A DNA stretch of 64,000 bases from Tubulanus polymorphus (Eukaryota; Animalia; Nemertea), in assembly GCF_964204645.1 (NCBI RefSeq), contig NC_134028.1:10726001-10790000 (forward strand), in the 5' to 3' direction. Position 1 is the first letter of the stretch; every line of letters starts with the position of its first letter. The translations under genes and the position numbers were made by a program. Positions 1,101 through 60,439 of this stretch are shown here, piece by piece. Under the pieces are notes generated by a model that saw only the letters and a list, made by a program, of their open reading frames with translations, searched no databases and was not told where the DNA came from.

Positions 1101-1101
1101 T

Positions 1102-9100: not shown

Positions 9101-9423
9101 TACCACGGAATTAGAAGTATTTCTTAAGACAGGAGCTGGCATGGTTAACTGTACTTAAGCCATGACCTATCCCTGTACAACCCAAGTTTTGATCAATTAT
9201 ATTGTTAGCCCACTACACTGCAGATGTCATATTGTTGTTATGAGAACCAGAATCACCAATTCAATATATGCATATCTTCAAGTTTAGATCATGAATGTTT
9301 AATGTGTGCTTAAATTAATGCTGTGTTTAATTCAAGCGCAGGATTAATTCCAGGCTTATTAAAAGGTAGGTTTTCTGTTTTATCTTTCAAGTAACATGAT
9401 TTAAAAATAAAGTACGAATATAA

Positions 9424-9570
<147 letters not shown>

Positions 9571-10328: not shown

Positions 10329-13300
10329 ATGTGTGTTACATATCCCAATAGCAATTTCACAGCAATTCCAACCCAAGATCAGAAAAAAATTACTGATTCC
10401 TCGAAACATTTGCGTTCGCAGACTCCAACTACATCCATTGTGTCTGAAAGCGACACTAACAGGGGGATTTTTCCAAAATTGTGCGTATTCTGTAATCAGG
10501 CTCGCTCACGTAGAAGGAGAGGCAAGCCTGCCGAGACTTTGAGTACATGTGTGACAGAAACTACTGAGGAAAGCATCAGGAGGACAGCTGCTTATCTACA
10601 GGATGATGCAATGTTAGCAAAGATTTCAGGAGTGGATTTGATTGCCAAAGAATTGAAATATCACCAGTCGTGTAAAAACAATTATGTCAAATCAGCAGAA
10701 CGAAATAAAACTCAAGACGAAAACGTGACAACCCAGCATGCTCGTTCATCATTTGAAAATATCTGTAATTACATAAAGGAATCCGTTATTGAAAATAAGA
10801 GACCTGAACTTTTGAGTTCTATTTACTCACAGTATATATCTTTTTGTGATGATGTTGATGAAGAGCCATTGGCTAATGCTCAGACATTATCAAGGTCTGT
10901 CCTAGATAGGTTTCGTGGTCGTTTGAAGTCAATGCACTCAGATTCGAAGAAAAAGGGTGCCATCATTTATAGTTCTGACATGGCACAAGAAGCTATTAAA
11001 GCCGCGTACGATTTCACACAATCACAAGAAGCAGCAGTTATAATGGTAGCCTTGCTTCTCAGAAAGACTTTGAAAAAGGTAGTAAAATCACCATTTCCAG
11101 AATCTCCAACTGAAGATGATATAAATGCAGGTGAAGCTGCACCACCCGATCTCGTAAAAACATTCTTTAATATTCTATATGGTGGCCCAAATGTAAAAAA
11201 CACACTCGCAAAATTAAGCGCCTGGCTGAATCCTATTCTCAGGATGCCCTATTCAATGTACATGCTGGGCATATTAAACCTACTAAACATGTTCTGTTAG
11301 GTATTTCAGCAAAGTCCATGACTGGTAGTAAGAAATTAGTATCTTTTTTGAATAGGTTAGGTCATTCTATTAGTTACAGTTGTGTCGAAGAGAATGAGAC
11401 AGCATCGGGTTCAGCTATACTTTCTCGCCAAAACACATGCCCAGAAGACACACTAAAACATGTGTCAATGGGTCTAGCGTTCGACAATTACGATGAGTTG
11501 ACGAATACTCTTTCGGGTGCTGATACATTGCACGATACTATGGGTATATTGTATCAGAACATCAACGAAAGAGATGAGCCCTTACTTGCAGTTGCTAGAA
11601 ACAAAGGTGGTCGGATGGCCAAAAAGAGAAAGCTTGTGTTTGACGAGACAGACATTGAACTTTACCGAAAAAGACCAAAAATGACTTGCTTTCAATATGA
11701 TCAGACAGATGTATCTCCTTACAACAATGATAAAAGTGATTTGCTGGATTTGGTTTGGATGATGTCTCATGCATTAAAAGTTCCTAGCATGCCTATGTGG
11801 GTTGGATTCAATTCGAAGCTAGTTTTAGACAAATTGCCAATGCAGAAAGTTTCGTACATGGCGAACCTTCGGCAACCAATAACTGAGCTTGATGTAGTCC
11901 AGGAGACACTCAACATTACCAGACGCTGTGCAGATGAAGTTTCTCTTGATTATGGAATAGTCACTTATGATCTCAATGCAGCTAAGCCTGCCTTGCAAAT
12001 CCAGGCTACCGAAATGCCTAAATACAACAAAGTATTTGTTATGATTGGCCAGTTTCACACCGAAATGGCATTCTTTAAAGCACTTGGCAAATTAATGACA
12101 GAGTCTGGAGGCCCATCATTATTAACAGAAAGTGGTGTTTTGGCACCTGGTTCTCTCAAGGGCTTCTTGACTGCTAAAAACTTCAACCGCTGCAAACGAA
12201 TCCATCCACTCCTCGCACTTGCCATTGAAAGTCGTCACTTTCTTAAGTTCATTGAAAACTATGAAAGCCGCAGTGACGTGTTCAGAATAGTGTCCTCGCT
12301 GAAGGAATTTTGGCAGAGAATCTTGGGAATTAGTAGAGTCGTCTGATATAATCAAGGTATGTGTAGAAAAGTATTCCAAGTTCTGTGATGATACCAAGAA
12401 AGGACTACATGGTGCAACAGCTCAATTCTGGTTTATGTACGTGGAATATATACACTGATCCCACAGACTGGACAGGTCTATTCGAACTAATGAAGTTGAA
12501 GATTTCATTCGGGCTTTGTCACCAATTACCCACTTGTTCTTCATGACCAACCATGTTATCTACGCACGGTGGCTTACCAAATTTCAGATGGACTTGTTAA
12601 ACATTGATAGTTCACATCCCGGATTGCGTGATCAGCTAGATCAAGGTGCCTTTTTTGTTAGACGTACATGCCATGAATTCAGTAGGTTGCCTGTTGACCT
12701 CACACTCGAGCAAACAATAATGCAGATGCTGCTTCTAGGTCAACAGGTTGTGCATCAATAACTAATAACTATATTGCTAGACTCCGCTGGATGGTAACCA
12801 AAGCAAGCCGGGCATCAATCATTGAGAAGATGCAGGAAATGGTAGAAATTACATCAAAAGAAGATATCACAGCTGATCTGCGACAATCCAGACTGAAGCG
12901 AAATAATCTAGATCTCCAGAAATTGGTTGATCAGATTCAGAATACATTTGATCCATTCCAGGAAGTTGATAACCAAGAAGTTCTCTTCAATTTGTACACT
13001 GGTAGACCTGCATCCGATGATGTTAAGGACTTCTTGTTTAAAGGTTCCAGAAAAAGGAAAAGAAAGACACCAGAAATTTGTAAATGAATGTGTGGCGGAT
13101 CCTAGTAGGTTTGAACAAGCTATCAGTTAAGTTAAGCTAGTCACCTTTAAGAAGGAGTGTGCGCGAAATGTCCGAGGCATCGATAAAAAGGTAGATGAGC
13201 TTAGATGTACACGGGATTTGATGGGACGCCTGACAGTGATTGCAATGGACAAAAAGCTTGACCTTCAGGATATCATGAGCTATCCTCTCACGCCTGTTCC

Positions 13301-14676
13301 TCTAAGCATGTGTTCGACTGATGGATCAATGGTGAAAACTGACAAGAGTACGTTGTTTGCCGAGTTGGAAAAGAAAGTCCAGCCATCACAGCCGCAGTCA
13401 AAGAATGCAGTTATGGTTGATGGGAATTTCCTCCTCCATATGGTTGTAGCAAAGAAAGGAATGAGTTATGGCCAACTTGCCCGTGTAATTCTCATTCGAA
13501 TAACTGCTCTCTCCAGACATCGCGTGGACGTCCTTTTTGACACTTACCAAGAACCGTCCATCAAAGGCTCTGAAAGATTACGCAGGAATGCAAGTGACCG
13601 AGAGTTTCTGATAACGGGACCAGAACAAAGGTGCCCTCTCAACCTCAATGAAGCATTGAAGTCAAATACATTCAAACAGAGGCTACCACATTTCCTGGCT
13701 AACGAGTGGGAAAAAAATGAATACAGTGAAATTATTGGCAGTAAAGAGATCGACTTGGGATATGCTGAAACTTGCCATAAATATTTGGTTACTGCAGGAC
13801 GCATTATCAGGAACACGGTAGAGAATTTTGTGTGCAATCACTTCGAGGCTGACACCAGGATCTGTCTACATGCAAAGGATGCAGATAGGTCAAATGTTAG
13901 AGATATCATAATCCGTGCTTCAGACACTGATATAGCCATAATAATGATACACCATGCAAAAACTTTCAAAGCAAAATTATGGATGGATGTCGGAACGAGC
14001 AGTAGTAACAATCGAAGATATATTTGTATTTCTGACATTTCAAAAGACATTGGAGAAACGATGTGTGATGCTTTACCAGCATTCCACGCGTATACAGGAT
14101 CAGACTACACGTCTGCATTTACCAGAAAAGGCAAAATAAGGCCTTTCAGACATCTCGAAAAAAATTAGAAAATACAAAAAGCATTTGCTTCCCTCTGCTA
14201 TGAAGAAAGTCCAACCAGCAGTACCATAAAAGCCATTGAACACTTTACCAGCTCAATGTATGGATCCAAAAAGGATGACAGCTCATTGAATGATCATCGG
14301 TTTCAAGTTGTTCTCAAAGCGTATGGACCAAAACCAGGAGGAAATAATCCATTGGGTAATTTAAAGGGGGTTGATGGATCCAACATTCCACCATGTCTGG
14401 CTGAACTTACACCCCACATACAAAGAGTATCATTTGTCACTCGCATGTGGCACAGCGCTTATAGATGCCAGCTCGTTCAAAATCCAAAAGAGAACGATGG
14501 ATGGTATTGACAATGATAGGTATGATCTGGTGATGTTTCAAGGTAATCAATGTCTGGAAAATCCCATTGACAATAGTGACCTTGCGAGTGACGACGTAGG
14601 TGATGACGAATCTGAAGTTTATGAAACGGATGAGAGTGATTCATCTTCAGCCGAAGATGAATCCGATGATGACTGA
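10329..14676 (+). pseudogene. Academ transposase fused to XPG/FEN1-like nuclease, frameshifted
   Basis: C..C..YH..C finger; AFDNYD, VTYDL, GQFH, DLTLEQT (DDE-like); VDG, FDTY..SIK..ER, HFEADTRI, SDTDI, HAYTGSDYTSAF.RKGK (XPG/H3TH). Confidence 0.85.
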
Positions 14677-17149
14677 GATTTATTGATGGATTATGATACT
14701 GATTTAATAGTTTTCAGTTTACTAATATATAGCTGAAGCAGAATAAACAATTCGCGGTTCAAAGTCTATAGACAGCTACAAAATTTTAAGTTTGACCGAG
14801 ACACCCTATCTAGATCAAGATTTTTGTAAATATATCAAAAATTGAGAAATTTCAAATCACGAGGTGGCCCTTTAATGGCACAGTAGGTTACTGAAACCAA
14901 GCAATATTTTTGGGCTTGTCTGACAAATAAACACTGTGTAAAAGGATTGATTATTAATTGCAAATTTTAGTTACATGAAAAATTGAAAGAAACTATGCAG
15001 AAATACTTGTTCTTAAATTTAGTTTACTGTTTAATTAAATCATTGATTGGAGAGTTATGGAAGGAAAACCGCTGATAAAAGATGATTTTTCTCAAAGGGG
15101 GCATTAGGGGGTTTTAAGTGTGTCTTAAGTGGGGCTAGGCACGGAAAATCTCGTCTTAAGTTACATTTTCTGAATCAGCACATAAAATACTATGATTCTG
15201 AGGTAGAATCAGACCTGGACACAAACTGTTGATTAAAAGTGCCCTAGGCCCCCGAAAAAAGGGGGTCTTAAGGGACCCTAGGCACAGAAAATTTCGTCTT
15301 AAGTTCTGATTTTATTTCAGTTGGCCCATGCCCAACTAATAAATGTTGAAATTGATGCTGGACAAAAACTGTTGATTAAAGCCAGTTTTTTGACAAAAGG
15401 GGGCATTAGGGGGTTTTAAGGGTGTCTTAAGTCGGGCTAGGCACGGAAAATCTCGTCTAAAGTTACATTTTCTGAATCAGCACATAAAATACTATGATTC
15501 TGAGGTAGAATCAGACCTGGACAAAAACTGTTGATTAAAAGTGCCCTAGGCCCCCGAAAAAAAGAGGGTCTTAAGGGACCCTAGGCACAGAAAATTTCGT
15601 CTTAAGTTATGATTTTATTTTAGTTGGCCCATGCCGTACTGATTTATGTTGAAATTAATGCTGGACAAAAACTGTTGATTAAAACGATTTTTTGGGAATT
15701 TTTGGGGGCCCACCTACCCCCCGCAGGCACGGCTTTGAAACTTAAGACGTTCCTTTCCTAAGTAGATATGGGCCAACCTTGACATTCCACACCTCAAACC
15801 TTCTTGACTAAAACTGTTGATTAAATGTGGGCTAGCTCCTGGACTATTAATCCTAACACACCAATTGATATAGCTAAAGGAGTAAATGGACTGAATATTG
15901 CTAAAAATGTTATTACAGAACTTATTGTAACTGAACTACTAATAATAAAATGATATATAATTTTACTTTTTAAATATTTTTTCTTTTTAACTTTTAAATC
16001 ATTTTCAAATTCTAATATTTGTTTTTCCAAATATTATTTTGATTTAGTTTTATTTATATCATGATGAATAATATCAATATTATCAACTTTATCGTCCATT
16101 TATTTAGAAAAGAAATTACTTATTAGTAAATTTATAAGCAACAAATAATACAATAACTGTTCCACCTAAAATCCAAATGATTTCTTATTTTTGTTGTTCA
16201 CTACTTGGTGTATAATAATCCGATAATTTAGGTTTATATAGATTTAATTTTTCTTTATTTGGTACTGCGTTATATAAACTCATTGCATCATCGACTGATT
16301 GAAAATCTCTATGAGTAATTTTCTGATTATATAATTCTTTATTGATGTAATCCATATAGTTTTGTCTTTTTTCTCTATATTCTTCTGCAGCTTTATTATA
16401 TTTTTTTAATGGTAAGATATGTCTTATTTGTTCTCCTAATGAACTATTTTTATCAATATGTTTAAATAAATAACCCCCGCCTGTAAATGCTAAAGCGTTT
16501 ACAATTGCTGATCCTATAATAGTTATAATTGCAGATGCCATTTATTAAGTAAAAAAATTTTTTATATAGGAGGAATACATTTTTGTTTTTCTAAATAATC
16601 AATTGTTAAATTAGATAAAGTTACTGCTAACGTTAATTTTAAAATATCATTGATATCAAATCTATCAACATTAACACTTCCCATTTTAGATACTTTTTTT
16701 AATACCATTGTATAACCAACAGTTCCAACTGATAGTAATGCTCCATTATATTAACCAGTTATTATCCACTTATTATCACTCATTTATTTATCAAAAAATT
16801 ACTATCTTCAATATATTTAGTTAACTTAGTTATAATTATTTCAACATTTATTTCATTACTACTTTTATGATTATCATATATTTTGGATAAAACATTTTTA
16901 ATATCATCGATAATTCCATCTTCATTTAATTCATAATATTCTAAAGATGTTTTAATTAAATCAATTACTTTTTCTATATTATTATTTTCTTTGTTAATCA
17001 TTGATGCATTGTTAAATGATTTATTGACTTTTTATATCAGTAATTACATCATTTAGTTTAATCCTCATTTCTTGACCATGTTTAAAATCAAACCCAAAAC
17101 ATATACTCGGCCCAACAGTTATATTCATTTATATAGTGAAAAATTTACA

Positions 17150-17900
17150 CTTTACATCTTATAACTAATTCATAAATTACAGGAAAATTATTCAAATCAA
17201 TTATTTATCCATTATGATTTCTTACTTCTAATTTGAAATTATTAAATCGTGAAATACAAGGCTTAAAATCACATTCTGTTAAATTATAATTTATTTGCAT
17301 TCCAAATTATTTAACATTCTTCAATTGTAAAATATTTAATATACTAGAATTACAAGTTATATCTTTAGTTGCTTCGAATGCCTTTGTAGGATCAATTAAA
17401 TTGCAATAAATATAAAAATGCGTGTAAGGTATTAAGTTTGGCGCCGCATCAATATTTGTATAAGATCTGGAGGAATTCCTAACAGTTTAGCTATAGGTTT
17501 TTTTTACCATAAATTTATGTTTTTCACTATTAGACAACCTTATCTTTATTCTATCAGAACTCTCACTTTTTAAAAATCTAATACTAAACCCGGAATTACT
17601 ACCTAACTTGTGCCAGGCTTTTCTATTAATTTCTTGCGATAATGTATCTAAATTATATAACCCCGGTTTTAAATATATATAGGACCATTCATCTTTATTT
17701 TTATCAAAAATTAAAAAGGCTCTATGTTCAATAGATTTACCCGATATATTATAAAAAGAATTACATGAACTTACATCGACTAATTTTAAATCAACACAAT
17801 TTTTAAATTCTCTATCTAATTGTACTAGTAAATTATGTGATTTATAATTTGTAAGTCTTCTTGAATCAACAAATATTCTATATTCTTTTAATTCTACCAT
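17150..17900 (-). pseudogene. Penton-like gene (left copy)
   Basis: Homolog of 24765-25545. Confidence 0.65.
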
Positions 17901-17901
17901 T

Positions 17902-18259
17902 TATTTTACATATTTTCGTATTCAAAATCTATATCATGGTGCCCTTTTTCATTCTTACCTTTATATATGAAATAGAAATCACCAAAACATAATTCTTCTA
18001 AATCTTCACTTGATAATCTATGAAATCTATCTGGTAAATATGTTCTGAATTTATATTTATTTCCTTTCAATCCTTCATATGCTAAGTGAATAACTAATTT
18101 ATCTCCATATTTGTTAGTAACTGTATCAATATTAGTAATTAAATATTTCTTATGAATTGTTAGTTCATTTAACTTCTTAAATTTACAATCTACTGATTCG
18201 ACATTTGCAGTATCTTAAATTCTATTTAAGAATTAACTGTGTATTTGTTTACTCTCCAT
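17902..18259 (-). pseudogene. Small Polinton protein, possibly OB-fold ssDNA-binding
   Basis: FKKLNEL..KKYLITNI..V.NKYG..VI.L..FRTYLPDRF..FIYKG pattern; two stops near the 5' end; absent from the right copy. Confidence 0.4.
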
Positions 18260-18507
18260 TTTGATAACATATTTTTTATTAAAATTGATTTTAGAAGTTA
18301 TTCATATTCATATATATGAATATTATAAGAGTAATAGGAATTAGTTGTTCTAGATTAAAGGTTGAGAGGGCAAGTGAGTAAAAAATTGAAAAATTCATAA
18401 AAAATGAAAATAAATTCTCGCACACTCGAATTTATTGTTCATTTTTTATGAATTTTTTTATTTTCTGGCCAAGTTAGTGTTGGCTACGTATGTTTTTACA
18501 GGGAATG

Positions 18508-18592
18508 AGTAATTGGAAAAGTACGCTTTCAGATCAGAGTACGAGACACCACTCATCACCACAAGTAATTTTTTTTCCTAATAAATGGGAGA
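18508..18592 (+). repeat. Polinton left TIR (contains TAAATG start of the pPolB gene)
   Basis: Reverse complement of 40125-40217; begins AGT. Confidence 0.9.
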
Positions 18593-21500
18593 GAGTGAGT
18601 ACCAGACAGAAAACAATAATGTTAATAAAAATCAATATTATTGCCTATATTGTAAAAAAATACATCGATAAATCTAATAAATCTAAACATGAAAAATCTT
18701 CAAATCATATAAAAAATGTTATGGATTTTGAAACTCCAGAAAATTCCAATGAAAGAAAAGAACGATTAGAAAATATGAATGTGGATGAAATAAAATGTGA
18801 AGTTTGTAATGAATTTTTAGTAAAAAGGAATAGACATCTCGAATCACAAAAACACCACCAAAATTTGAGTAATAATGTTTAGGAAAAGATTATTTTGATG
18901 ATAAACCTCAAAAAGTAAAAAAACCAAATTCAAAAACTAAATCCATTTCAAATAAACCTTACATGGAAAATGTTAGAAATTATATTGATTCACTAGAAAT
19001 AAAAGATACAATTGAAATTTTAGAAACATTACGTAGTAAAATTGGTCCTGCAGCTATTATATTCAGATTTTTTAAAGGAACAACAATAGAAGATTATAGT
19101 AAATTTAATGAAATAATAGAAAAAATACTAGATTTGATAACAGATGTTGAATATCCAAAAATTAGTATCTCTGGGAAAGTAAGTTTTATAAAGTCAGAAG
19201 AAAAAATGGATTATAATATTCAAACACTCTCTGAAGAAATAATTTCAAAAAGACAAATAAAAGAGAAATTAGAAAAAATATTTAATGAATTTAAACGTCA
19301 TATTGAAGAAAGATATTTTGAGGGTTCTGGCTTAACATTGAATGAAATTATATATTAAGATTTAAATGATTTAAACATCAAAAAGTAATAAAATGTTTAA
19401 AAATGATTCAAACTTTACAACAGAAAAGGATATTAAAGCATCATCTTATATCAAATTACCATTTACAACAAAAGCAGTAATAAATATTCAAAATGAAGAT
19501 AATAAATGTTTTCTATGGTCAATTATTAGTTGCTTACATCCAACACAGGAAAATGTTTGTAGAATAACATATTACCGGAAATATGAAAAATTATCTAAAA
19601 TTGATCAATATCCAGTAACTATAAAAATGATACCCAAAATAGAAAAAATTGATAATTTAAAAATAAATGTATTCGAATTAATGCAATTACCAAATACAAA
19701 AGGTGAAAATATTAAAGATTATACATTGGAAGCTTTATATTTAACAGAATATTATGATGATGAAAATGCTATAGATTTGTTATATTACAAAAAAGAGGAA
19801 AATGAACATTATGTGTGGTTAAAACAAATTGATGTATTCTTTAGAACAGAAAATGATCACCATAATAGAATTTATCTATGTAGAAAATGTATATCTAAAT
19901 TTATGACTGAGAATACATTATTAAAACATAAAGAATTATGTGATAATAAAGATTTTTGTAAATTAATAATGCCAACAGAAAAAGATTATAAATTGAAATT
20001 TACTAATCATAAATTAAAAAATATTGTTCCATTTGTAATTTATGGGGATTTTGAATCGTTGAATAAAGAACTAACTGATCAAGATAGAAAAGAAATATAT
20101 AACAAAAAGCAATTACGAAAATCAATGGATAAAGGAATTGAACTAAATGAAGATATAATTCAAGACCCACCAATTATAAATACAATTAAAAAAGTTCATC
20201 AAAGAGCTGCTGCTTATGGAATTTACATAAAATCAAATTATCCCGAATTATATGAAAGTCAATATATTTCTTTTAGAGGTGAAAATGTAGTTAATGATTT
20301 TTGTAACAACATAATTGAATTAGAAAGTGATTTTGCAGAATTATTAAACAAAAATAAAAGAATAGTTATGACAAAAGAAGATGAAATTGATTTTAATTAT
20401 GCAGCTCATTGTTGTTATTGTGAAAAACGTTTTTATTCATTTGATAAAAAAGTTAGAGATCATGATCATTTAAATTCAAAATATCGTGGAGCTGCGCATG
20501 AAGATTGTAATTTACAAGCTAAAAAAGTAAATTTCGTTCCAATATTATTTCATAATTTATCAGGCTATGATACCCATCTATTTATAAAACAATTATCAGG
20601 GAAATTGGGCGCAATTAATCAAGAAATAGAAGAATATAATGCTATGAATGGTGTAAATGTAAGAAAATATGATTTTAAACTATTAGCCAAAACATCTGAA
20701 AATTATATTTCATTTCAATTTGGTTGCATTAGATTTTTAGATTCTTATAGATTTCTAGCAAGTTCATTAGATAATTTAGCAAAAAGTTTAGTTGATAATG
20801 ATTTTGTTATAACTCGATATTAATATCCAAATGAACAAGATTTTAAATTATTGAGATATAAAGGTGCAATTCCTTATTCATTTTATGATTTTAATGTAAC
20901 AGAATTATTAAAAGATCAATTTTATGATCAATTAAAAGAGGAGTATGTGAAAGATGAAGTGTTTAATAGAACATTAAATATTTGGAACCATTTTAAGATG
21001 AAAAATCATGGTGAATTAGTTGATTTATATTTAAAATCAGATGTGATGATATTGGCTGACATATTTGAAAAATTTAGAGAAGTGAATTTGAATCATTTTG
21101 ATGTTGATCCTTGTTATTGCTACTCTAGTCCTGGTTTAACCTGGCAATGTGGTTTAAAATACACAAATGTAGAATTAGATTTATTAAAAGAACCAGAAAT
21201 GGTTTTATTATTTGAAAAATAAATTAGAGGTGGAATTAGTGGTGTTATGGGATATAGGTATTTTAAAGCAAATGATGAATATAAATTATTATATATTGAC
21301 GCCAATAATTTATATGGTTGGGCAATGATGCAACCTCAACCATATAAAAGTTTTATATTAACAGAAGTTGAAAATGATGATAAAACTGATTGGGAAAGCG
21401 CAATTGCGAGTTTAAAAGATGAAGCACCAATTATATTGTTCATTATAGAATGTTATAATTTTATCTAAAGCAAGGAATGAAATTAAAGAAAGTACATAGA

Positions 21501-23410
21501 TATATTGAATTTAATCAATCGAAATGGTTAGAAAAATATATAGATTTCAATACTCAACAGAGAACCATATCAAAAACAGATTTTGAAAAAGATTTCTTCA
21601 AATTAATGAATAATAGTTTTTATGGTAAAACATGTGAAAATATTAGAAATAGAAATGATATTGAATTAGTAAATAATTCTGAACGATTAAGACATTTACA
21701 ATCAAGTCCTAGACATTTAGGAAATAAAAGATTTGAAGATTATTTAACAGCAGTTAAATTAAAAAGAACGTCAATGAAATTTAATAAACCTATATTCATT
21801 GGTTCAACTGTTTTAGAAGTATCAAAATTATTAATGTATGATTTTTATTATAATGTTTTACAACCACTTTTTGGGGAAAAACATATAGAAATCTTATATT
21901 TTGATTCTGTTACAGCTGACACCCCAATATTATTAAAATGTAATGATAAAATATTGATAAGAAGAATTTCAGAAATAATTCCAAAACAAAATGAATGTTA
22001 TATTTCATATGGTGAAAAAGAATTAATACAAATAAATGGTTTAATGGATGTTTGGACAAGAAATGGATGGAAAAAATTAAAGAATATTATTAGACATAAA
22101 ACAAATAAGAAAATCTATAGAGTTAGAACTAAATTAAAGTTTGTAGATGTTACAGAAGATCATAGTTTAATTAAACGAAATGGCGATGAAATAAAACCAA
22201 CTGATATAAAAATTGGAGATGAATTATTACATAAAAGATTTTTCCAAAGAATGAATCATATGTCATTTGATGAAATTATTGATAATATTTATAATACAGA
22301 ACCCGAAACATTAGAAGAAAAAGGATATTTTATCATAGGATTTTTCATGGGTGATGGTTCAGCAGGTGTGTATAAATATGTTAATCGCACTCAATATCGT
22401 TGGTATTTATGCAATCAAGATTTGAAATTATTAGAAAGAATTAAGAAATTCTGTGAAGAAGTTTATTCACATAAAACATTTAGAATCGTGGATCATATGA
22501 AATCATCCGCGGTTTATAGAATATTTGTAAATAATCCTAAAGATTTTGCTACAAAATATAATGATGAATTCTATATTCATGCAATAGTTAAAAGTAATAC
22601 TTCAACTAAAAAAAAGATAGTTCCAGATTATGTATTAAATGCAAAAGATAATTTAAGAAAATGGTTCTTCATTGGATTTTATGCTGCAGATGGTTCAAAA
22701 AGTTTCAATACAATATCTTTTAAGCTCAAAAAGGAAAAGTTGCTATATCAGGGTTAAATATATTATGTAGTTCATTAGGCTTCAATATGAATATTGGATT
22801 GATTAAATCTAAACCAAATTGCTTTAATTTAAGCCACACAGAAAAAGATTTAACTGAAGAAGTTAAAGATTTATTTGAAATATATAACCCAGCAGATTAT
22901 GTTTATGATTTATCAACTGAAGATGGTACATTTAACTGTGGATTTCCATTAATTGCGTTCAATACTGACAGTTACATACTAAAAATCAAGACAAATGACA
23001 TAACAAAAGACTTAAAAACATGAAAACATCATTTTGATTTTAGCAATTATCCCAAAGATCATGAACTATTTAGCAATGATAATAAAAAGATTCCTGGTAA
23101 ATTTAAAGATGAATTAGGGGGTGATGAAATGATTGAATTTGTTGGGATAAGAAGTAAAATGTATAGTTACAGAACAAAAGATCATGAAGCTAAAAAGTTA
23201 AAAGGAATAACAAAACATGTGGTTGATAAACATATAGAATTTCAAGATTATATAAAGTGTTTATATAACTCAATTGTAATGAAACACAAAATGAATTGTT
23301 TAAGATCAGAAGATTACGAGATGTACATTAATGAAGTTGAAAAAAAGTTTGAATCCATTTGATGATAAAAGGCATATTTTAGATGATGGTATAAAAACAT
23401 TACCGAAATC
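18585..23410 (+). pseudogene. Protein-primed family B DNA polymerase (pPolB) with N-terminal zinc fingers, vOTU-like protease region, exonuclease with HNH/EndoVII insert and an intein; disrupted
   Basis: Motifs: NKCFLWSI..HYVW (OTU-like), IYGDFES (Exo I), C..C..VRDHDH..YRGAAH..CN (EndoVII), FHNLSGYD, YIDANNLYG (A), KLMNNSFYGKT (B), YFD|TDS (C), PFDDKR. Stops, frameshifts and an internal deletion near 21428 split it into 7+ ORFs. Confidence 0.93.
21906..22963 (+). mobile_element. Intein with LAGLIDADG homing endonuclease inserted in pPolB motif C
   Basis: YFD|SVTADTPILL (block A), VDVTEDHSL (block B TxxH), FIIGFFMGDGS and FFIGFYAADGS (two LAGLIDADG motifs), YVYDLSTEDGTF (block F), IAFN|TDS (block G, +1 Thr). 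One frameshift at ~22721. Confidence 0.93.
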
Positions 23411-23653
23411 ACTATTGGCTTCTTCATTTTCATTTAATTGTTCTTGTATAATTTGTTTAGGTTCTTCCATTTCATTTTTCTCATTTAAATAAAGTTCTAT
23501 CTTGTACCACATTTCATCTCGCTCTCTTTGTTTCTTTTTGTTTGTTAATTCGTCAAATGGAATTATACTATCGATGTTTAAATAATTTACAATCTTATTT
23601 AAAAAGAATTCATAATTAATTGAATCTGTTATTCTATTTTCCAAATGATACAT
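23306..23653 (-). CDS. Polinton hypothetical protein
   Basis: 115-aa ORF, start overlaps stop of upstream ORF; convergent with pPolB. Confidence 0.45.
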   Translation of the reverse strand: MYHLENRITDSINYEFFLNKIVNYLNIDSIIPFDELTNKKKQRERDEMWYKIELYLNEKNEMEEPKQIIQEQLNENEEANSDFGNVFIPSSKICLLSSNGFKLFFNFINVHLVIF

Positions 23654-24294
23654 TAATATTTGTTTGAATGTTTTTTTATATTTTCCATATATTCTTCTGT
23701 TAATTTAGGTTTTTCATAATAATCATTAAATAATAAATATAAATACATTTTCTTTTGTTTTGTGTTAAATGTTGATGGAATAATTGTTTTTATAATATCT
23801 TTTTTAGTTATTTCACCATTTTTATTTTCTATCATTTTCATTTTTTCAAGCCATTGCATATATTCTGGTGTATGAACTTCTATAGAAAATATTTTAAAAA
23901 TTTCATCTAGATAATTTAATTTTGGTTCTATGAGAAAATCTCTAGTTTTTTCATCACCCCATAAATTCTTTTGCCATCCACATTCATTACAAAATAACAC
24001 AGTACCTTCTTGTCTTAAGGTCGCATAATTACATTGTGGGCATTTTTGTTTATAATTTATTGGTAATAGATCTTCATTAAGCTCCTGGTATTTTCTTATG
24101 TTTTCTTTATGTTTTACTGTTCTATTATGTAGATTTGAATTACATGTTGTAATAATCAATTTACAATATTTACAATAATATGTTTTTCTTGTTAATTCAT
24201 TATATTGTTTTTCTAACTTTTCAACTGTTTCTTTATTATCTGGTAACGTTTTCTCATATTTTATTTTTTCTAATTTATTTATTTCTAGTTTCAA
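23653..24294 (-). CDS. Polinton zinc-finger/zinc-ribbon protein
   Basis: YYCKYC..H..T.KH and CPQC..CNECG motifs. Confidence 0.6.
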   Translation of the reverse strand: MKLEINKLEKIKYEKTLPDNKETVEKLEKQYNELTRKTYYCKYCKLIITTCNSNLHNRTVKHKENIRKYQELNEDLLPINYKQKCPQCNYATLRQEGTVLFCNECGWQKNLWGDEKTRDFLIEPKLNYLDEIFKIFSIEVHTPEYMQWLEKMKMIENKNGEITKKDIIKTIIPSTFNTKQKKMYLYLLFNDYYEKPKLTEEYMENIKKHSNKY

Positions 24295-28467: not shown

Positions 28468-30138
28468 TTTTTTTATTATATAAATGGATGTAGAAGGTGG
28501 AGAAGATATTGGAATGGATACTTTTGATGAACCCGGCATAACTGAAGAACAACCGCCTGATTTTAGTGAAACAAGTTTTAATGACGGTAATGAGCCAGAA
28601 TATAATAATAATTTAAATATGCCTGATTATATTAAAAATGCAGAATCACAATTAAATCCTGAAAATTTAGACCCAGATTTAGTAAAACAAGATTTAGATA
28701 ATTTAAACAAAATACCTCAATTAGAACGTATAATTGAAAAGTCTAAACTTAACATAAATGATGAAGACGTTGGACTTTTAGCAGATCAATTAAAATCTTT
28801 AGATAATGGTAAATGGTATTATCATTTGAAAGGTATTTATTATATTGATATCACTTATAAAAATAATAAAAATAAAATATTAACAAAATCAACTTTGAGT
28901 GATTTAGATCCAGATAGAATTAAAAGAATTAGTAATAGTAATGTAATAACTGATGTTATAAAACAAGAATTAACTGGTAATGATATAGACGTATTTAAAC
29001 AAAGAATTAATGAATTATTTGAAATAATCAAAAAGAAATCAGAAACAGAAACAACTTCTGAACAGAATATAACTTTCAAAACTAGTAAACTTAAATCAAA
29101 TAAAGTTCCAATTGAAAAACTTTTACCGAATGGATTAATTGATGCAACAGATCAACAATTAGAAGATTTTAATATATTTTCTGATGAAGCAATTAGAGAA
29201 ATTATTAGTATAAGAAATGAAGCTGATAAAATTACACATAATAAAAGTATAAGAGATTTTAAAATTAGATTTTTAGAAAAGAATTAACTGATAAAAATAA
29301 AGAAATAGAACAATTAAAGTCTGATTTAGATCATCAAGTAATTGATGAAACAGAATATAGGCAAAAAGAATTACGATTAGAAAAAGAAATTAATGATTTA
29401 AAAGATAATTTAGAAGTACAGAAAGAAGAAATTGAATTATTAAAATCATATGATTATAATATTAATAGATTAAAAGTTATTTTTAAAGATTTGTTGATTA
29501 AACCAAATTCTGAAATATCATTAAAAGATAGAATAAAGTTATTATTTGAATTAGAAGGAATAACAATTCTTTTAATTCTAACAGCTGTAACTATGTTATT
29601 TACAACAATTGGTTTAGCAATATCAAATTCTTAGAAATCTACTCCTACTCCCAATAAACCGGATAAACCCCCCGAGTGATAATAATTCTATACAAGATAA
29701 AGTAAAAGATGGTTTAAAGAAGAGGAGGGAATCCCACAATGATAATAAAAAGTCCGAAAATGAAACTTCGAGATAGTAGTTTATTTCAACGTTTCTACTA
29801 TATCCTAATAGTCATCTTCAGGAATAATGAGATACTACAGAAATTATGAGATATATATATACAATCCAGAGACAAAGAGACTAATTCAAGTAATCAGAGA
29901 TGATACAAACTAAAGGAAAATTAACGTAGAAACAGTTACACGCTAAAATAGATTAAAGGGAAGCAAACTAAGGGGTGATTATAAACAACAATAGTGAGTA
30001 TAAATATAAATGAAACTTAAAGTCAGTAGTAAAAAGAAAGACAAACTAAGGGGCACTTAAATTAAAACAAAGGTGAATACAAGTTAAGTCAGAGACGAAA
30101 TTGATGAGAGAACAAATAACAAATAATCAAAGGGGAAA

Positions 30139-31563
30139 TCAAGTGTTGAATTTAACCAGTTTACAGAGGAATTTTGATATAAGTTTATTATGGGGTGAAA
30201 AACCATTGTTAAGGTTTACAACGTTGTTCGAATTTTCAATAATTAATGCAGATTCCAAAATATGTCTTCTAGTTTTATCGCTGCAAGGGTAAACTAATTC
30301 AGCATTAGCAAAATCAAAATTGTGTGAAGTCTGAAAAACATGACTAGCAACTCCGCTTTCAGGTTTAAAGTTTTTTACATCTAATTTATGCTCTTTTATG
30401 CGTTGATTAAGATTCCGACCTGTTTCTCCTATATATACTTTGTCGCAAACTTTACAAGGTATTTTATAAATTCCACAGTTTAGGGATTCGGTTTTCGGTT
30501 TGTTGTTAATCAATATGTTACTAAGTTTATTATTGTATTTAAAGATAAGTTGTTTATTTAGTGACCGAAGAGAAACTTTAGAATTCTCGAGGAAAGGTAC
30601 ATACGGTACAATGATAGGCTGTTTATCGGTAGCCAACGTAGGAGTTCTAAGGTTGTTATTTCTAAAATGCGTAGTACGAGCTTTAAGTAGAGCTTTTTTC
30701 AATAGGAAATCGGGGTAGGCAAGTTTTTTGAGAGATTGGTTAATATGGTGAATCTCATCGGGTAGAAATGAGGGGTCGCAAATTCTCAAAGCGCGAAGAA
30801 ATAATCCTTGAGCTAAACCGAGTTTAATATCCGGAGAAGTAAAAGAGAAGTAATGGAGGTAGGATTCAGCGTTGGTAGGTTTCCTATAAACCGCGAATTT
30901 CAAAAAGGATCCACAGTTAAAAATCAAAACATCCAGAAAAGGTATTTTACTATTAGATTCCCATTCATACGTAAAAGCCAGAGACGGGTAAAGGGAGTTT
31001 AAATATATAAGAAAGTTATCAACATTGAAGTCAAAGGGAACCAAAGCCAGAACATCGTCAACATATCTGAGCCAGATTTTAGGGTGAATATCAGTGTAAA
31101 GAGGCAATATTTCAGATTCAACATGTTCTAGGAATAAATTAGCTAGAATAGGACTAAGAGGATTTCCCATAGCGATACCGAATGTCTGTTCGTAAAAACA
31201 ATTGTTGAATTCAAAAAAGGAGTCCGTCGTACAAATAGAGATAAGGTCGATGATACAATCCGTAGGAATGCCGAAGTTAATGTTAAGTGATGGTAATCTG
31301 CGTTTTAAGAAATCAAGAGTAGGTCCAAGAGGAACATTGGTAAAAAGGGAAGTAACATCAAATGATATGAATTTGTCGTTGCCAGGGATAATATTCTTAA
31401 TACGTTCAAGTAAGTGTTGATTATGGCGAAGGTGCGACGGAGAGAACGAACCGAGCACCGGAGATAACTGTTTCGCGAGAAATTTAGATAACCGGTATGT
31501 AGGAGAATTACAATTGGAGACTATAGGGCGCAGTGGAACATTATCTTTATGAATTTTAGGCAA
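30139..31563 (-). CDS. Inverted partial duplicate of the Penelope RT/GIY-YIG ORF
   Basis: Near-identical to the C-terminal 474 aa of 31935-33908 (about 4 aa differences). Confidence 0.9.
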   Translation of the reverse strand: MPKIHKDNVPLRPIVSNCNSPTYRLSKFLAKQLSPVLGSFSPSHLRHNQHLLERIKNIIPGNDKFISFDVTSLFTNVPLGPTLDFLKRRLPSLNINFGIPTDCIIDLISICTTDSFFEFNNCFYEQTFGIAMGNPLSPILANLFLEHVESEILPLYTDIHPKIWLRYVDDVLALVPFDFNVDNFLIYLNSLYPSLAFTYEWESNSKIPFLDVLIFNCGSFLKFAVYRKPTNAESYLHYFSFTSPDIKLGLAQGLFLRALRICDPSFLPDEIHHINQSLKKLAYPDFLLKKALLKARTTHFRNNNLRTPTLATDKQPIIVPYVPFLENSKVSLRSLNKQLIFKYNNKLSNILINNKPKTESLNCGIYKIPCKVCDKVYIGETGRNLNQRIKEHKLDVKNFKPESGVASHVFQTSHNFDFANAELVYPCSDKTRRHILESALIIENSNNVVNLNNGFSPHNKLISKFLCKLVKFNT

Positions 31564-31934
31564 TCCATAGATATTATGATATACGTGGTTGAAGACAAAT
31601 TTACTATGTTTTCGGTGTTGCTAAATCTAGTCCAAGGGCTGGAATCAATGAGTTTATTCAGTTGGTTGGTAAGATCCACGGACTTTCTGTGCTGATGATA
31701 TTTTCCAGAGCCTTGAACAATAGTGGAGAGCGATTTCCAGAGGAATAGGTCCGGTACGTGTGACTTCAAATAATTTTGAGATTGACGGAATTTGTAGAAC
31801 TGATAGTTACAGTCTTCCTTAGCACGATCTATAGCGAATTTGAGTTGCTTGTTAGCTTCGGGTGGAAACGCAGAGCTGGATTCGATTTAAGTTTCTTATA
31901 AACACCAGGATTATCCAAGAGAGATTGAATTTTA

Positions 31935-33908: not shown

Positions 33909-34217
33909 TTTCCCCTTTGATTATTTGTTATTTGTTCTCTCATCAATTTCGTCTCTGACTTAACTTGTATTCACCTTTGTTTTAATTTAAGTGCCCCTTA
34001 GTTTGTCTTTCTTTTTACTACTGACTTTAAGTTTCATTTATATTTATACTCACTATTGTTGTTTATAATCACCCCTTAGTTTGCTTCCCTTTAATCTATT
34101 TTAGCGTGTAACTGTTTCTACGTTAATTTTCCTTTAGTTTGTATCATCTCTGATTACTTGAATTAGTCTCTTTGTCTCTGGATTGTATATATATCTCATA
34201 ATTTCTGTAGTATCTCA

Positions 34218-34265
34218 TTATTCCTGAAGATGACTATTAGGATATAGTCGAAACGTTGAAATAAA
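34218..34265 (+). ncRNA. Minimal hammerhead ribozyme motif in Penelope pLTR
   Basis: CTGAAGA (34224-34230), stem II GACTAT/ATAGTC, GAAAC with palindromic AACGTT stem III; inverted copy at ~29780-29827. Confidence 0.75.
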
Positions 34266-34606
34266 CTACTATCTCGAAGTTTCATTTTCGGACTTTTTAT
34301 TATCATTGTGGGATTCCCTCCTCATCGCGTCAACACGGATATTGTGTTCTACCTATCGTGATGGTTTAAAGAAATTAGCAAAATATTTATGGGAACTATC
34401 TAAAAGATCTGCTGCAGCTTTACTAGGAATTATTGCATCAATTGTTGGTTTTCTGCAGGTAATATTCTTAACTTTGCTGCTGAACATATTATTTTATTTT
34501 TAATTACAGTTGTAAGTGCTATTATTTTTGGGTTAGTGAATATGATATCAAAAAGATATCAAGAAAAAATGATAAAAAATAAATAATTAATTTTTTTGTT
34601 AAATAA

Positions 34607-35856
34607 ATGAGTGGGAGTTATATAAGTCCTTCTAAGATTTCTAGAATATCTAATGCTATTAAAGCAGAAAGATCACATCATATAATTACTCATAATCCTT
34701 CAAATATTAATCCCGATGAAACTTTATATGTTAGAATTCCTAGATTAACACAAAATACTTTTTATGTTCCAAATAGTATTTATTTATCAGCCGATATAAA
34801 AGTAACTGGTCATGATAATAATTATGTTGTCGATAATGTTGGGAGATATTTGATTAAAAAATTAACTACAAAGATTTGTCCAGAAACAGTTTTCTCATTA
34901 GATGATTATAATTTATTAATGCATTATAAAGATTTATGGTTAACTAAAGAAAATAGAAATAATATGATATTTCAAGGCATTCAATCGGAAAACCATAATA
35001 AATTAAGATCAGGAGGTAATGACGCAATAGTAACTCGTGCCGCAGATAATTTGATTAAAAAGATTTATGGAAGCAAATATAAAATTCCATTAGACTTTGA
35101 ATTGATAAATAATAATGCACCTTTATATAAATATGTAATTCAAGAAGATGTTATATTTGAGATGTTTGCTCCTGTAAATGAAATTGTATTATCTAGCGTT
35201 GTTAAAGATATGGGTTATAAATTATCGAATATATGTTTAGAATATAACACAGTAACTAATGAAAATATTGCTAACACAATTCAAACTCAATACAATCAAG
35301 GATTTTCATTATTATATGATTATATTGATAAATTTAAAACTGTAACTATTAATGCAAATGATGAGATAATTAATGAGAATATTAACTTCCCAAGAAGATC
35401 TATTAAAAGTATATTAATATTTCTTACCATTGCAACATATTCTAATGGCGCAATAAAGGTAGATAATTATTATAATCCTAAAATAACAAAAGTAGAAATA
35501 ACTATAGCAAAGGAATAGCAAATAAAATATTTTGTCAAGGAATGAGAATGATAGATCAATGGCCAGAAATTAGAAAACATTTTATGAATGAAAAAGTGAA
35601 ATCATCTGAAAATTGTAATATTAATCAAATTGATTATTATTATACCGGTAATAAATATGCATTATGGTTAGATTTTAGAACAACAGAGGATAATTCATTA
35701 CATGGTTCTGGGAAAAAACTACAGAACACTAAAGATGGAATACAATTATTCATGGCAAAGAAAAGAGGAGACAAAAATTTCAAAATGCACATTTATATTA
35801 TATCTGACGCACAATTAAATATTGTAAATTCACAATTAGATAGTATTCAATATTAG
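34607..35856 (+). pseudogene. Major capsid protein (double jelly-roll, inferred), premature stop near 35518
   Basis: ~410-aa beta-rich product located between the structural cluster and integrase; homolog at 4951-6199 (-). Confidence 0.7.
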
Positions 35857-36062
35857 AAATATAAAGTTAAAATTAAGGATATATAAATAGGCGGTATTAA
35901 ACTCCTAGTACTAAAGAACAATATTTAAGAAATTTATATTACAACCCTGAGAGTTCGGTTGCTTATTCTTCTGCCAAAAATATGTGGCGTCAAGTATAAC
36001 AAGATAAATTAGATAAGATAATCCCACAAAATTTAGTTAAATATAAAGATATAAATGAATTT

Positions 36063-37013
36063 ATGTTAGAACAACCAACATACACAACACATAAAAAAAT
36101 TGTTAGAAAATATAAAACTCGTAAAACTATGGTACGTTATGTAGATCAACAGTGGCGAGGAGATTTAATTGATATGAAAAGTGTTAAGAAAGATAATGAT
36201 GATTATTGGTGGATATTGAATATAATTGATATTTTCAGTCGTTATGTATGGAGCTTCCCACTTTACCGAAAAGATGCTGTACAAACATCAAATGTTTTAA
36301 GAAAATTTCTTTCGGATGATAAACTAAAACCAGAAAAAATACAATTTGATGATGGAAAAGAATTTGATAATTCACTTGTTCATGAACTCTTAGACAATCA
36401 TAATATTAAATATTTTTCAACAAAATCGGATAAAAAAGCGGCAGTTGTTGAACGATTTAATAAAACATTAAGAACAAGAATGTGGAAATATTTTACAGCA
36501 AATAATACTTTTAAATGGATTGATGTTTTACCAAAATTGATAGAAGGATATAATAATTCTTATCATTCTTCTATTGGAATGAAACCTATTGATGCTAGAA
36601 AACCTGAAAATGCTGAAATTGTTTGGAATAATTTATATGGAGCATTTCTTGTAGATGATTTTGGTGAACCTAAATTTAAAGTTGGTCAAAATGTTAGAAT
36701 TTCTAAGTATAAAAAGATATTTGATAAAGGATACGATCGAAATTTTACTAGGGAAATATATAAAATAAAAAAGGTAATAACAACAAAACCATATGTCTAT
36801 AAATTAGAAGATTTAGATGGTGAAGAAGTTGATGGCTACTTTTACGAAGAAGAATTAAGTTTAACTACAGAAAATCTAGAACAAGAATATAAAATTGAAA
36901 AAGTATTAAAAACAAAAACTATTAAAAGAAAAAAATATTCTTTAGTAAAATGGGTTGGGTGGCCAGATGAATTCAATGAATGGATATTATCAAGTAAAAT
37001 TAAAAGTATATAA
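36063..37013 (+). CDS. Retroviral-like (RVE) integrase with C-terminal chromodomain (true 5' end ~35887 mutated)
   Basis: WRGDLIDM, IDIFSRY, QFDDGKEF, VERFNKTL (DDE); YKIEKVL..LVKWVGWPDEFNEWI (chromo). Confidence 0.93.
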   Translation: MLEQPTYTTHKKIVRKYKTRKTMVRYVDQQWRGDLIDMKSVKKDNDDYWWILNIIDIFSRYVWSFPLYRKDAVQTSNVLRKFLSDDKLKPEKIQFDDGKEFDNSLVHELLDNHNIKYFSTKSDKKAAVVERFNKTLRTRMWKYFTANNTFKWIDVLPKLIEGYNNSYHSSIGMKPIDARKPENAEIVWNNLYGAFLVDDFGEPKFKVGQNVRISKYKKIFDKGYDRNFTREIYKIKKVITTKPYVYKLEDLDGEEVDGYFYEEELSLTTENLEQEYKIEKVLKTKTIKRKKYSLVKWVGWPDEFNEWILSSKIKSI

Positions 37014-37621
37014 TGAATAAGGAATTATTTATATTTGAGCCTCATAATATGTTAATTTCTGGTGTAACAAATTGTGAAAAAACTTATTTTATATTAAATT
37101 TATTAGAAACTGTTTATAAAAACTATTTTGATAATATAGTATTATTTTGTCCAACATATGAATTTAATCAAACTTATGACAGAAATATTACTAGAAATAA
37201 TAAATTTATTATATTAGATCCTAAAACAGTAAAAGAAAATTTAGATAATTGTATTAAAATAGCAATTGATATTTCTAAAGAATCAATTACATTATTCATT
37301 ATAGATGATTGTGCTAATCTACATGATTCAAAAGTTAGAGAAAGTGAGTTATGCTATTTAGCTTTCTCTGGGAGACATTTTGGGATAACAACATGGGTTT
37401 TAAATCAAAAATATAATTCAATTGTTAAAGACTTTAGAGAAAACATTAGATTTCTAGTTTTATTCTACAATAAAGACAGAAAATCGATGAAAAATGCACT
37501 TGAGGAAAATGATATTATTCCACATGATTTACAAAATGAATGTATGGATAAATTGAAAAATAATAAAAGATCAAAATTACTATTTAGATTACAACACCCA
37601 TTTAAATATGAATTTATTTAA
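37013..37621 (+). CDS. A32/FtsK-like DNA packaging ATPase
   Basis: ISGVTNCEKT (variant Walker A), LFIIDD (Walker B), SGRH.GIT.WVL.Q. Confidence 0.88.
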   Translation: MNKELFIFEPHNMLISGVTNCEKTYFILNLLETVYKNYFDNIVLFCPTYEFNQTYDRNITRNNKFIILDPKTVKENLDNCIKIAIDISKESITLFIIDDCANLHDSKVRESELCYLAFSGRHFGITTWVLNQKYNSIVKDFRENIRFLVLFYNKDRKSMKNALEENDIIPHDLQNECMDKLKNNKRSKLLFRLQHPFKYEFI

Positions 37622-37900: not shown

Positions 37901-37926
37901 ACACAACTAATTTGTTTGTTATATAA

Positions 37927-39531: not shown

Positions 39532-40124
39532 GCTAAAACTTACCTTGAAAACTGAATTCCTTTTAATCACTAGAGAGAGAATGTATCCTGTGTGTGTTGT
39601 ATGTATTGCGTGCTTATTATATAACTGCTAGCTATCCAATATAACAACAACGTTGAATTGCAACACCTTTTTGATCGATCAATATTCAAATGAAGCACTC
39701 TCTTATAATAACATGTAACAGATGTTTGACTGGTATGATTGTAGTTGTTCGTAAAACGACTAAGGTCATTTTGGATTCTAGATATTCATTATTTTTATTT
39801 TTTATTTAATCAACAATTTCTAAATCATGATGACCGTCTTCCTTTTTTCCATGATAGATTATTTTAAATCCTTCTAAATCTTTTAATTCCTCTGTACTCA
39901 ATGAAACCCATTTATCAGGTCAAATAATTTAAATTCTTGCGATGTACTAACATTGCAGTAGCTTAAATTAGAAGATACTTTCTCTCCATATTTAGTTTTT
40001 ATCTTTTCTAATTTCAATATTTTATGTTCAATTTCTTTTGTAACATCAACTAACTTTTTTATTTCAAATTTTTTTGTTTGCTGGTTTTATTCTGTTATTT
40101 ATTATTGCTAAGAATGCTTTTCTA

Positions 40125-40217
40125 TCTCCCATTTATAAGGAAAGAAAATTACTTGTGGTGATGAGTGGTGTCTCGTACTCTCGTACTCTGATCTGAAAGC
40201 CTACTTTTCCAATTACT
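40125..40217 (-). repeat. Polinton right TIR
   Basis: Matches left TIR apart from an 8-bp duplication (CTCGTACT) and a few substitutions; ends ACT. Confidence 0.9.
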
Positions 40218-41173
40218 GGAATGTATTGACGGGAATATTAATTACATCAATATTAGCCTTACTGCATATTCATGTAATCCTCATTTCTGAGCAACTTCAT
40301 AAGACAAATCCCAATGCCCTGACACTGCCACAAAGAAATAAGACACGGCTACCTTTACAATACCATGACTAATTGTTAATTTTCCTAAATTTTAGTCAAG
40401 GTGTTGAATATGCAGTTATCTTATTTGACTACTACTTAACACTAATTGCACCCATTTGGGGTGACTCGGGATGCGATATGGTGTCACTTGGGACGTCCCA
40501 AGTCACTCCAAATGGGTGCATACTTCTGTAAGGTTGGGATACACAAATTATGGTTAGAAACCCAGGTTCTAGATATTTTTCTATTTATGTAAGAGTTTAT
40601 ACAATTGCGAGATTGAGAATTTTTTTGCTTACTTCATTGAACTAGTGAAGTAGGAATTTTCCGATATTTCTTTTTTACATATTTCCTTCCATTTTTTGCC
40701 TTTACTATTTAACCACCATAAGATTGTCTGATAGTTATTTATCATGAAGTCATTATGTTTATGGTCTAGAACGTCCCGAAAGCATTATAAATCCGGAAAC
40801 ACGTGCTACATCTACTTGCCTTATTGTAATATGAAGTCAGCCATCTTTGTCTCGAGTCACCCAGTTGTCCCAAGTCAACCCATTTTATGGCATGCTTTGT
40901 AGAGCGATGCAACGCGGTACTGGAATGTCCCACCTACGATACGGGTACATATATTAGTGTTTAACGTTTATAACCTTTACGGAAAGAGGTCATGGTCAAG
41001 TGAAGCGCTTAGCAGCAGCTGCTTGAGTCTCCTCAAAGATCGCCTGTTTTCTACTTTCTGTGATCTTGTAATGTGCTAAGTGATAAGGATATCAGTGTTA
41101 CTTTTTTGGCAGACTCAAATGGATTACTGTTAGACTGATCTGTTACATTTTCTGGTTTCAATTTCTGGATATA

Positions 41174-51333: not shown

Positions 51334-60439
<9,106 letters not shown>

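Follow-up and report, generated by a model that had tools for sequence, protein, structure and literature searches.

The window that we analysed is a 64,000-nt stretch of the Tubulanus polymorphus genome, and it contains a complete integrated Polinton of 21.7 kb (18508 to 40217). The element is bounded by a target-site duplication (GGAATG, the left copy at 18502..18507 being identical to the right copy at 40218..40223) and by terminal inverted repeats at 18508..18595 (forward strand) and 40122..40217 (reverse strand), which are 87.5% identical over 96 columns. On the forward strand it carries a protein-primed DNA polymerase B (pPolB) pseudogene (18664..23405, delimited by tblastn with the intact polymerases P0531 and P0001), a gene that likely encodes the major capsid protein and is spread over two frames (34607..35856), a retrovirus-like integrase with a chromodomain (36000..37013; Pfam rve E 2.2e-9, Chromo E 2.3e-4) and an A32-type packaging ATPase (37004..37621; Pfam Pox_A32 E 4e-12). 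The capsid gene has a DNA match of 88-92% to a sister copy at 5486-6199 that itself has a weak Capsid_N match (E 0.002), and no adenain-type maturation protease was seen among the 30 ORFs of the window scanned with Pfam. Inverted ends, a 6-bp duplication, a pPolB, an rve integrase, a packaging ATPase and a likely capsid gene are what the element has in common with Polinton/Maverick elements (adintoviruses) as described in the main text of Starrett et al. 2021 (PMC8502044), where the word intein does not occur. A host gene is present in the same window; a reverse-strand frame at 58763..58984, 18 kb past the right end of the Polinton, contains an exon of GFAT that is 98% identical to Tubulanus GFAT (P0271), the other 119 listed matches reaching at most 81%, which by itself marks the host as an animal, likely a nemertean.

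Several further repeats lie in and around the element. Positions 29719-34326, inside the Polinton, are occupied by a Penelope-like retroelement (reverse transcriptase and GIY-YIG) that forms an inverted duplication with 1725-nt arms of 100% complementarity, and three 89-nt imperfect direct repeats (37615-37926) separate the ATPase gene from the one that follows, an arrangement that is mirrored in a second, related Polinton. This second element (135-18214) is on the minus strand, head to head with the first, and is 83-92% identical to it across capsid, integrase and ATPase. It may be truncated or non-autonomous; tblastn with intact polymerases found no second pPolB in the window. It is interrupted at 8210-15847 by an insertion with ~750-bp inverted ends (97%) and three long frames (10323-14168), none of which matches Pfam; the insertion is likely a DNA transposon. 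At 41380-44418 there are fragments that resemble, by eye, a decayed LINE (endonuclease and reverse transcriptase); the one frame scanned there had no Pfam match.

The polymerase gene is split within catalytic motif C by an insert of 1058 nt (21906..22963, forward strand), and this insert is a real intein. Translation gives the junction peptides IEILYFD/SVTADTPILL and CGFPLIAFN/TDSYILKIK (slashes mark the edges of the insert), such that motif C reads YFD/TDS, with YFD (21897..21905) ending the N-extein and TDS (22964..22972) starting the C-extein and supplying both the Thr+1 nucleophile and the second catalytic Asp; in empty relatives the motif is YFDTDS. These boundaries had been called in the initial annotation of this DNA and are exact, as judged by translation and by sequencing reads that skip the same 1058 nt (see below). 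The HINT and endonuclease motifs it listed are also all present: block A (SVTADTPILL, with Ser1, 21906..21935), block B (DVTEDHSL, TxxH, 22146..22169), two LAGLIDADG motifs in a central endonuclease (IIGFFMGDGS, 22332..22361, and FFIGFYAADGS, 22665..22697) and blocks F and G (DYVYDL...GFPLIAFN, with a penultimate Phe, 22895..22963). DVTEDHS in block B, VYD in block F and the acidic residue of each LAGLIDADG motif are found in 7/7 pPolB inteins. Furthermore, the window copy has the canonical residues of a class 1 intein, namely Ser at position 1, a terminal Asn and Thr at +1.

Profile searches are consistent with the motifs. The N-terminal 272 residues match TIGR01445 (intein_Nterm) with E 1.7e-7 and, at 32.2 bits, exceed its curated cut-off of 24.5; the initial annotation had held that a lack of any HINT/LAGLIDADG profile match would refute its call. 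Pfam matches of the window intein fall below their cut-offs (Intein_splicing E 1.5e-5; LAGLIDADG_3 E 6e-4), whereas intact relatives lie above them (P0002 at 37.7 against 35.8 for Intein_splicing; P0001 at 30.1 against 22.5 for LAGLIDADG_3). The C-terminal piece by itself, whether in an 80-aa or a 99-aa version, gave no family match in profile searches, but the 80-aa piece is 69% identical to intact relative P0001 in alignment, and the window intein as a whole is 62% identical to P0001. A structure model was made for intact P0001 rather than for the broken window copy (pLDDT 94), and its Foldseek matches include TliVMA, PI-PkoII, PI-PfuI and PI-SceI (E 7e-18 to 4e-11) and also PhoVMA, with 7qsu, 2cw7, 1dq3 and 1vde among the PDB entries. 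P0001 is thus predicted to have a HINT plus LAGLIDADG fold like that of archaeal intein-homing endonucleases; a PDB search by sequence returned only PI-PkoII (E 4e-4). A HINT domain of the Hedgehog type was rejected, as the best structural matches of the P0001 model are intein-endonucleases.

The penultimate Phe had been singled out in the initial annotation as a departure from the usual His. The residue is there, but it is nothing special; among 105 related inteins, extracted with a pattern that fixes the first and last residues, the penultimate position is His in 33, Lys in 50 and Phe in 4. Phe was rejected as the mark of a special mechanism, given that 72/105 lack His, and the inteins described here add a Ser1/Thr+1 family in which the penultimate His is mostly missing.

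The window copy itself is dead. The predicted frameshift near 22721 is a single frame change, located at ~22722-22723 within the endonuclease domain, and both resulting pieces are free of stop codons. What the initial annotation overlooked is that the host polymerase of this copy is also broken. Compared with P0531 and P0001 it has five frame changes and five in-frame stops, at 19356, 20821, 21220, 21456 and 23021, and its match to Pfam DNA_pol_B_2 (E 1.7e-4) is below cut-off. With intein and polymerase both broken, the window copy can neither splice nor home. At three of the polymerase stops, 92-99% of the reads from other copies differ from the window, and the decay is therefore largely private to this copy. 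Relatives P0001, P0002, P0003, P0005 and P0006 have kept intein and host protein in a single open frame.

Evidence for full and empty alleles in the same species comes from sequencing reads, for which we compared four of 11 listed runs with positions 20800-24000. In raw-read run X6, at least 63 reads with 45 different start points skip exactly 1058 nt at the intein boundaries, and at least 33 further reads skip the insert and have variant codons just past the site. The empty joint was present in this one run of the four, none being listed in the three contig runs; marine metagenome run X5 yielded only scattered short pieces of the region and was left out. Mean depth was 203x in the intein, 399x in seven flanking polymerase bins and ~4x in three single-copy GFAT-exon bins, which corresponds to roughly 50 intein-bearing copies among roughly 100 Polinton polymerase copies, numbers that are rough because the thresholds were unequal (85 vs 90%) and because the flanks gather more diverged subfamilies. 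Both the intein-bearing and the intein-less alleles that the initial annotation had proposed to score are present in same-species reads, with copy numbers estimated from read depth. As the intein is in about half of the Polinton copies and cleanly absent from the others, it has likely spread among Polintons by cutting and converting empty copies, a reading drawn from sequence patterns.

Related inteins occur at the same site in seven other protein-primed polymerase lineages, or eight with the window. Among 120 listed intein matches, six are in pPolBs (P0001, P0002, P0003, P0005, P0006 and P0028, ranked 1, 2, 3, 5, 6 and 28), and the seventh, L018, was found in metagenome contigs by a junction pattern. 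The best 150 representative matches also include three short fragments of a Polinton-type intein. The residues before the insertion point vary among pPolB inteins (YFD, YMD, YSD, YLD and YGD), P0001 having the exact YGD/TDS. An animal host is established for the window element only and not for the other intein-bearing families. The host polymerases match PF03175 and not the PF00136 of RNA-primed family B polymerases. Searches for near relatives in their genomic context, and in further collections, brought little: the junction pattern, tuned to Polinton-type flanks, matched only L018 in metagenome contigs and nothing in prokaryote genomes or viral contigs; a locus scan of viral contigs with the window intein gave one weak locus, and with P0008 one distant locus (25%); a scan of metagenome contigs with P0001 kept 0/597 candidates; phage records gave two weak matches; and the ESM Atlas holds intein/LAGLIDADG clusters and intein-less pPolB clusters, with none joining both among the matches listed.

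The distribution across polymerases is patchy. The closest relatives of the extein have an uninterrupted YFDTDSYILK (P0151-P0154; P0151 is 92% identical over 149 query residues), and among the 119 other polymerases listed as closest to the extein none has the intein junction, 111 have an intact site and eight do not show the site. On an N-extein tree of 32 hand-chosen rows (24 empty and 8 full), presence and absence require seven changes, a count that depends on sampling, of which five are forced by starred branches, and presence is no more clustered than shuffled labels.

Two clusters of sequences at least 90% identical contain both states, in each of which 15 members are listed of 40 read, and these members may share one assembly and so be non-independent. 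In the cluster of 136, seven of the 15 are full, five are empty and three are uninformative, on contigs of up to 1.0 Mb. Here full and empty members differ at 11-18 of ~55 residues within -15..+40 of the site but at only 0.4-1.7% of residues elsewhere (~5% for P0134), and the patch has a binomial p of 4e-5 to 9e-12 in the five pairs tested. In each of the five empties the site is altered, to YFDTDA in three and to YGDTDA and YTDCDS in one each, compared with YMD/TDS in the full members, and the flanks of the full members resemble P0003. The empties with DTDA or DCDS motifs (P0129, P0130, P0131, P0133 and P0134) are otherwise 95-99% identical, open polymerases. The patch looks like either a co-conversion tract from a sister family or a cleavage-resistant site, and either way an active endonuclease would be implied. 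In the cluster of 121, five of the 15 are full or partial, one is empty and nine are uninformative; full and empty flanks are identical, with no conversion tract.

With regard to the age of the association, intein identity tracks extein identity within the polymerase class of the window (64/62, 51/51, 48/45 and 50/45%), a sign that the intein was acquired early and has been resident for a long time. The GC content of the intein (25%) matches that of the extein (24-26%), and composition thus gives no sign of a recent foreign origin. P0006 breaks this pattern; its intein is 46-49% identical to the others, compared with 24-31% for the polymerase beside the site, and falls inside the other pPolB inteins (95/83 in a 38-row tree). 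This suggests that the intein jumped between polymerase classes, the two classes ('Alpha' and 'Beta'), like the VSR-like segment in P0006, having been assigned by eye from published descriptions. An AU test did not reject a grouping of the five class-mates without P0006 (p 0.11), and the indication of a between-class jump therefore comes from the identities. The comparison of intein with extein, proposed in the initial annotation, thus gave concordance within the class of the window and a departure in P0006.

We favor a model, which we consider probable, in which these inteins form a Polinton-specific clade that likely goes back to a single, ancient acquisition of a pol-c intein from large DNA viruses, homing into empty sister elements having likely maintained it since; the window has a broken copy. 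The acquisition was likely old and Polinton-wide, with homing to follow and no recent jump into the window element. A different possibility is that inheritance has been purely vertical since an early Polinton ancestor, that the empty alleles arose by repeated precise loss and that the endonuclease no longer homes. The concordance of intein and extein within the class agrees with this, as do the AU test, which does not force a jump, and the cluster of 121 with its identical flanks. We nevertheless think it unlikely, for several reasons: (i) with none of the 119 listed close polymerases showing the junction and 111 intact, very many precise losses would be needed; (ii) the endonuclease is about as conserved as the splicing domain (46-70% and 45-70% identity, respectively, among five class-mates), which together with the acidic residues kept in 7/7 argues for continued selection on cutting; (iii) the differences between full and empty members cluster at the site in one family; and (iv) the P0006 intein is more similar to the others than its extein. 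The initial annotation had allowed that inteins of this kind might turn out to be widespread and vertically inherited in pPolBs, which would remove both novelty and transfer; half of this was borne out, as the inteins are old and mostly co-diverging, but they are also patchy, polymorphic and apparently unreported.

It could also be that the endonuclease is kept not just for homing but as a weapon, cutting the polymerase genes of empty Polintons or of co-infecting large viruses, in which case the altered sites would be escape alleles. There is precedent for the idea, as an interference role has been proposed for giant-virus inteins (10.1101/299784), and the altered site in 5/5 empties of the cluster of 136 would agree with it. 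However, a match in the DNA that surrounds giant-virus sites is improbable, and the same pattern is expected from co-conversion out of a sister family, given the resemblance of the flanks to P0003. We regard a weapon role as quite improbable.

The initial annotation had also proposed that the intein homed from a large DNA virus into a protein-primed polymerase, which would imply co-infection. Its premise of kinship stood up well. Of the best 150 representative matches, 135 lie in RNA-primed PolBs and two in topoisomerases, the other 13 lacking a reference match. The PolB inteins of giant-virus metagenome-assembled genomes are among the nearest outside Polintons, at 35-41% to the window intein (L016 40.5%, L015 40.6%). 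They share with it the ending FN(C/S)GFPLI, and all 15 pattern matches in viral contigs read xYGD/.../TDS, 13 being named GVMAG. The site is also the same pol-c site, as far as the accessible text of PMC549080 goes. A recent and direct homing from a co-infecting giant virus into the window element or its immediate ancestor is nevertheless largely refuted, and we consider it very unlikely. The six pPolB inteins (44-62% to the window intein) are closer than any giant-virus intein (at most 41%), they belong to a Polinton-specific clade that spans eight pPolB lineages, and within the class of the window the inteins co-diverge with their exteins. In careful trees of 38 and 16 chosen rows the six full-length pPolB inteins group together (100/99), and the clade recurs in a quick 96-row tree (SH 99), from which nine short inteins of the 105 were left out. 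In the quick tree the clade is nested among RNA-primed PolB inteins with P0008 as sister (SH 93), whereas in the careful trees, which are unrooted, its position is left as an open fork and the midpoint falls on the stem of the clade. P0008, the sister in the quick tree only, lies in a polymerase that is Pol-delta-like and weakly matches a C4 zinc finger. These relationships likely record that Polintons and large DNA viruses exchanged genes long ago at the active site of the polymerase.

That the fusion is an artefact, a misassembly or contaminating giant-virus sequence joined to a Polinton, as the degraded state of the window copy might suggest, has next to no credibility given deep coverage of the intein and both junctions by independent reads, intact fusions elsewhere (P0001, P0002, P0006), a GC content like that of the extein and intact element ends with a target duplication.

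According to the old-acquisition model with continued homing, splicing of the 340-355 residue insert out of intact copies would be carried out by Ser1, the His of block B, the Asp of block F, the terminal Asn and Thr+1. The route would be a Ser1 acyl shift, attack by Thr+1 and Asn cyclisation, restoring the DTD motif, which is the standard splicing chemistry as set out in the available text of PMC7765530. As the insert separates the two motif C aspartates, a working polymerase should arise only after splicing; going by established intein chemistry, the polymerase would be inactive before then. The freed endonuclease would cut the motif C DNA of an empty, related Polinton, which would then be converted, sometimes together with flanking sequence, as an intein-bearing copy served as the template for repair. 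Homing might occur between integrated copies or during episomal replication, both of which are conceivable because there are many copies per genome. The first entry would likely have been from a large DNA virus, on grounds of diversity. Direct homing between distant PolBs has been called implausible (Ogata 2005, PMC549080, in the accessible text), so the first entry would need a non-standard route, probably microhomology or illegitimate repair at the shared YGD/TDS word.

A stronger version of this model would be that a living intein gene drive exists in animals, that is, an intein competent for splicing and homing that converts one empty Polinton polymerase gene after another within animal cells, has jumped between the two deep polymerase classes and is met by cleavage-resistant alleles of the active site. 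We raise this tentatively, as the patterns in the sequences suggest it to us without persuading us. If true, this would give the first demonstration of a mobile canonical intein at work in an animal nucleus.

There is ample precedent for inteins at this position. As described by Ogata et al. 2005 (PMC549080) and Green et al. 2018 (PMC5784728), the pol-c (position III, YGD/TDS) inteins of Mimivirus, other Nucleocytoviricota and archaeal PolB are like that of the window in their position in motif C, their length of ~350 residues, their two LAGLIDADG motifs and their Ser1/Asn/Thr+1 residues. These, however, sit in RNA-primed PolBs, whereas the host in the window is the protein-primed PolB of an integrating 20-kb element, and the Polinton inteins further differ in their variable site word, their own clade and their tens of chromosomal copies in an animal. 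The LAGLIDADG intein at the pol-c position of an animal-integrated Polinton pPolB, the central call of the initial annotation, is confirmed in its site, its ends and the target duplication of its carrier; it is a known type of intein in a new class of host, here within an animal genome, and the population of copies gives evidence for homing.

Eukaryotic inteins have been surveyed in fungi, algae, protists and large DNA viruses and are described, in the parts of the surveys at hand, as mostly limited to microbes (PMC5784728, PMC10710043, PMC7765530). Gallot-Lavallee et al. 2023 (PMC10710043) report that in algae and protists (Klebsormidium, Tetrabaena and Anaeramoeba) inteins sit in DNA polymerases of endogenous viral origin and in nuclear genes. 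Their cases, to judge from the text available, resemble ours in placing a viral-type DNA polymerase with an intein on a eukaryotic chromosome, with virus-mediated spread invoked, but the hosts are not animals, and in the window the carrier is self-synthesising and multicopy, full and empty alleles coexisting in one species. The words 'animal', 'metazoa' and 'polinton' do not occur in the main text of that paper. HNH and VSR nuclease inserts are known from Polinton pPolBs (Jeong et al. 2023, PMC10748475; Krupovic et al. 2024, PMC11071308) and are likewise nuclease domains within Polinton polymerases. In the accessible text, however, they are described as nuclease domains at other positions, as opposed to the splicing blocks, LAGLIDADG motifs and exact empty alleles at the catalytic motif seen here. 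One speculative sentence in the available part of Krupovic et al. derives the HNH/VSR inserts from intein invasions, and 'intein', 'HINT' and 'LAGLIDADG' are not used in that of Jeong et al. The Hedgehog/Hog domains of animals also place a HINT fold in animal genomes, but, unlike the window intein, they are described in the accessible text of PMC7765530 and PMC5784728 as being without a homing endonuclease, extein ligation or an empty allele. In the published text on inteins and Polintons covered here, we found no intein of the HINT/LAGLIDADG type described from a protein-primed polymerase or from an element integrated in an animal, which does not prove its absence from print.

With a full intein and its endonuclease at tens of loci in an animal genome, beside empty targets, events of homing, co-conversion and resistance can be tallied for each copy of a single genome in a natural setting. 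The same setting allows a direct test of why animals otherwise lack inteins; it may be that inteins can splice and home there and that access is what has kept them out.

Inteins of the same family are found beyond polymerases, in type II topoisomerases and an ADP-ribosylglycohydrolase-like protein (P0004, P0093, P0099, P0103, P0105-P0108, P0114, P0116 and P0025), where the insertion is always after Asp and mostly before Thr-Asp. This suggests that non-allelic spread of the intein may be keyed to the short word D/TD.
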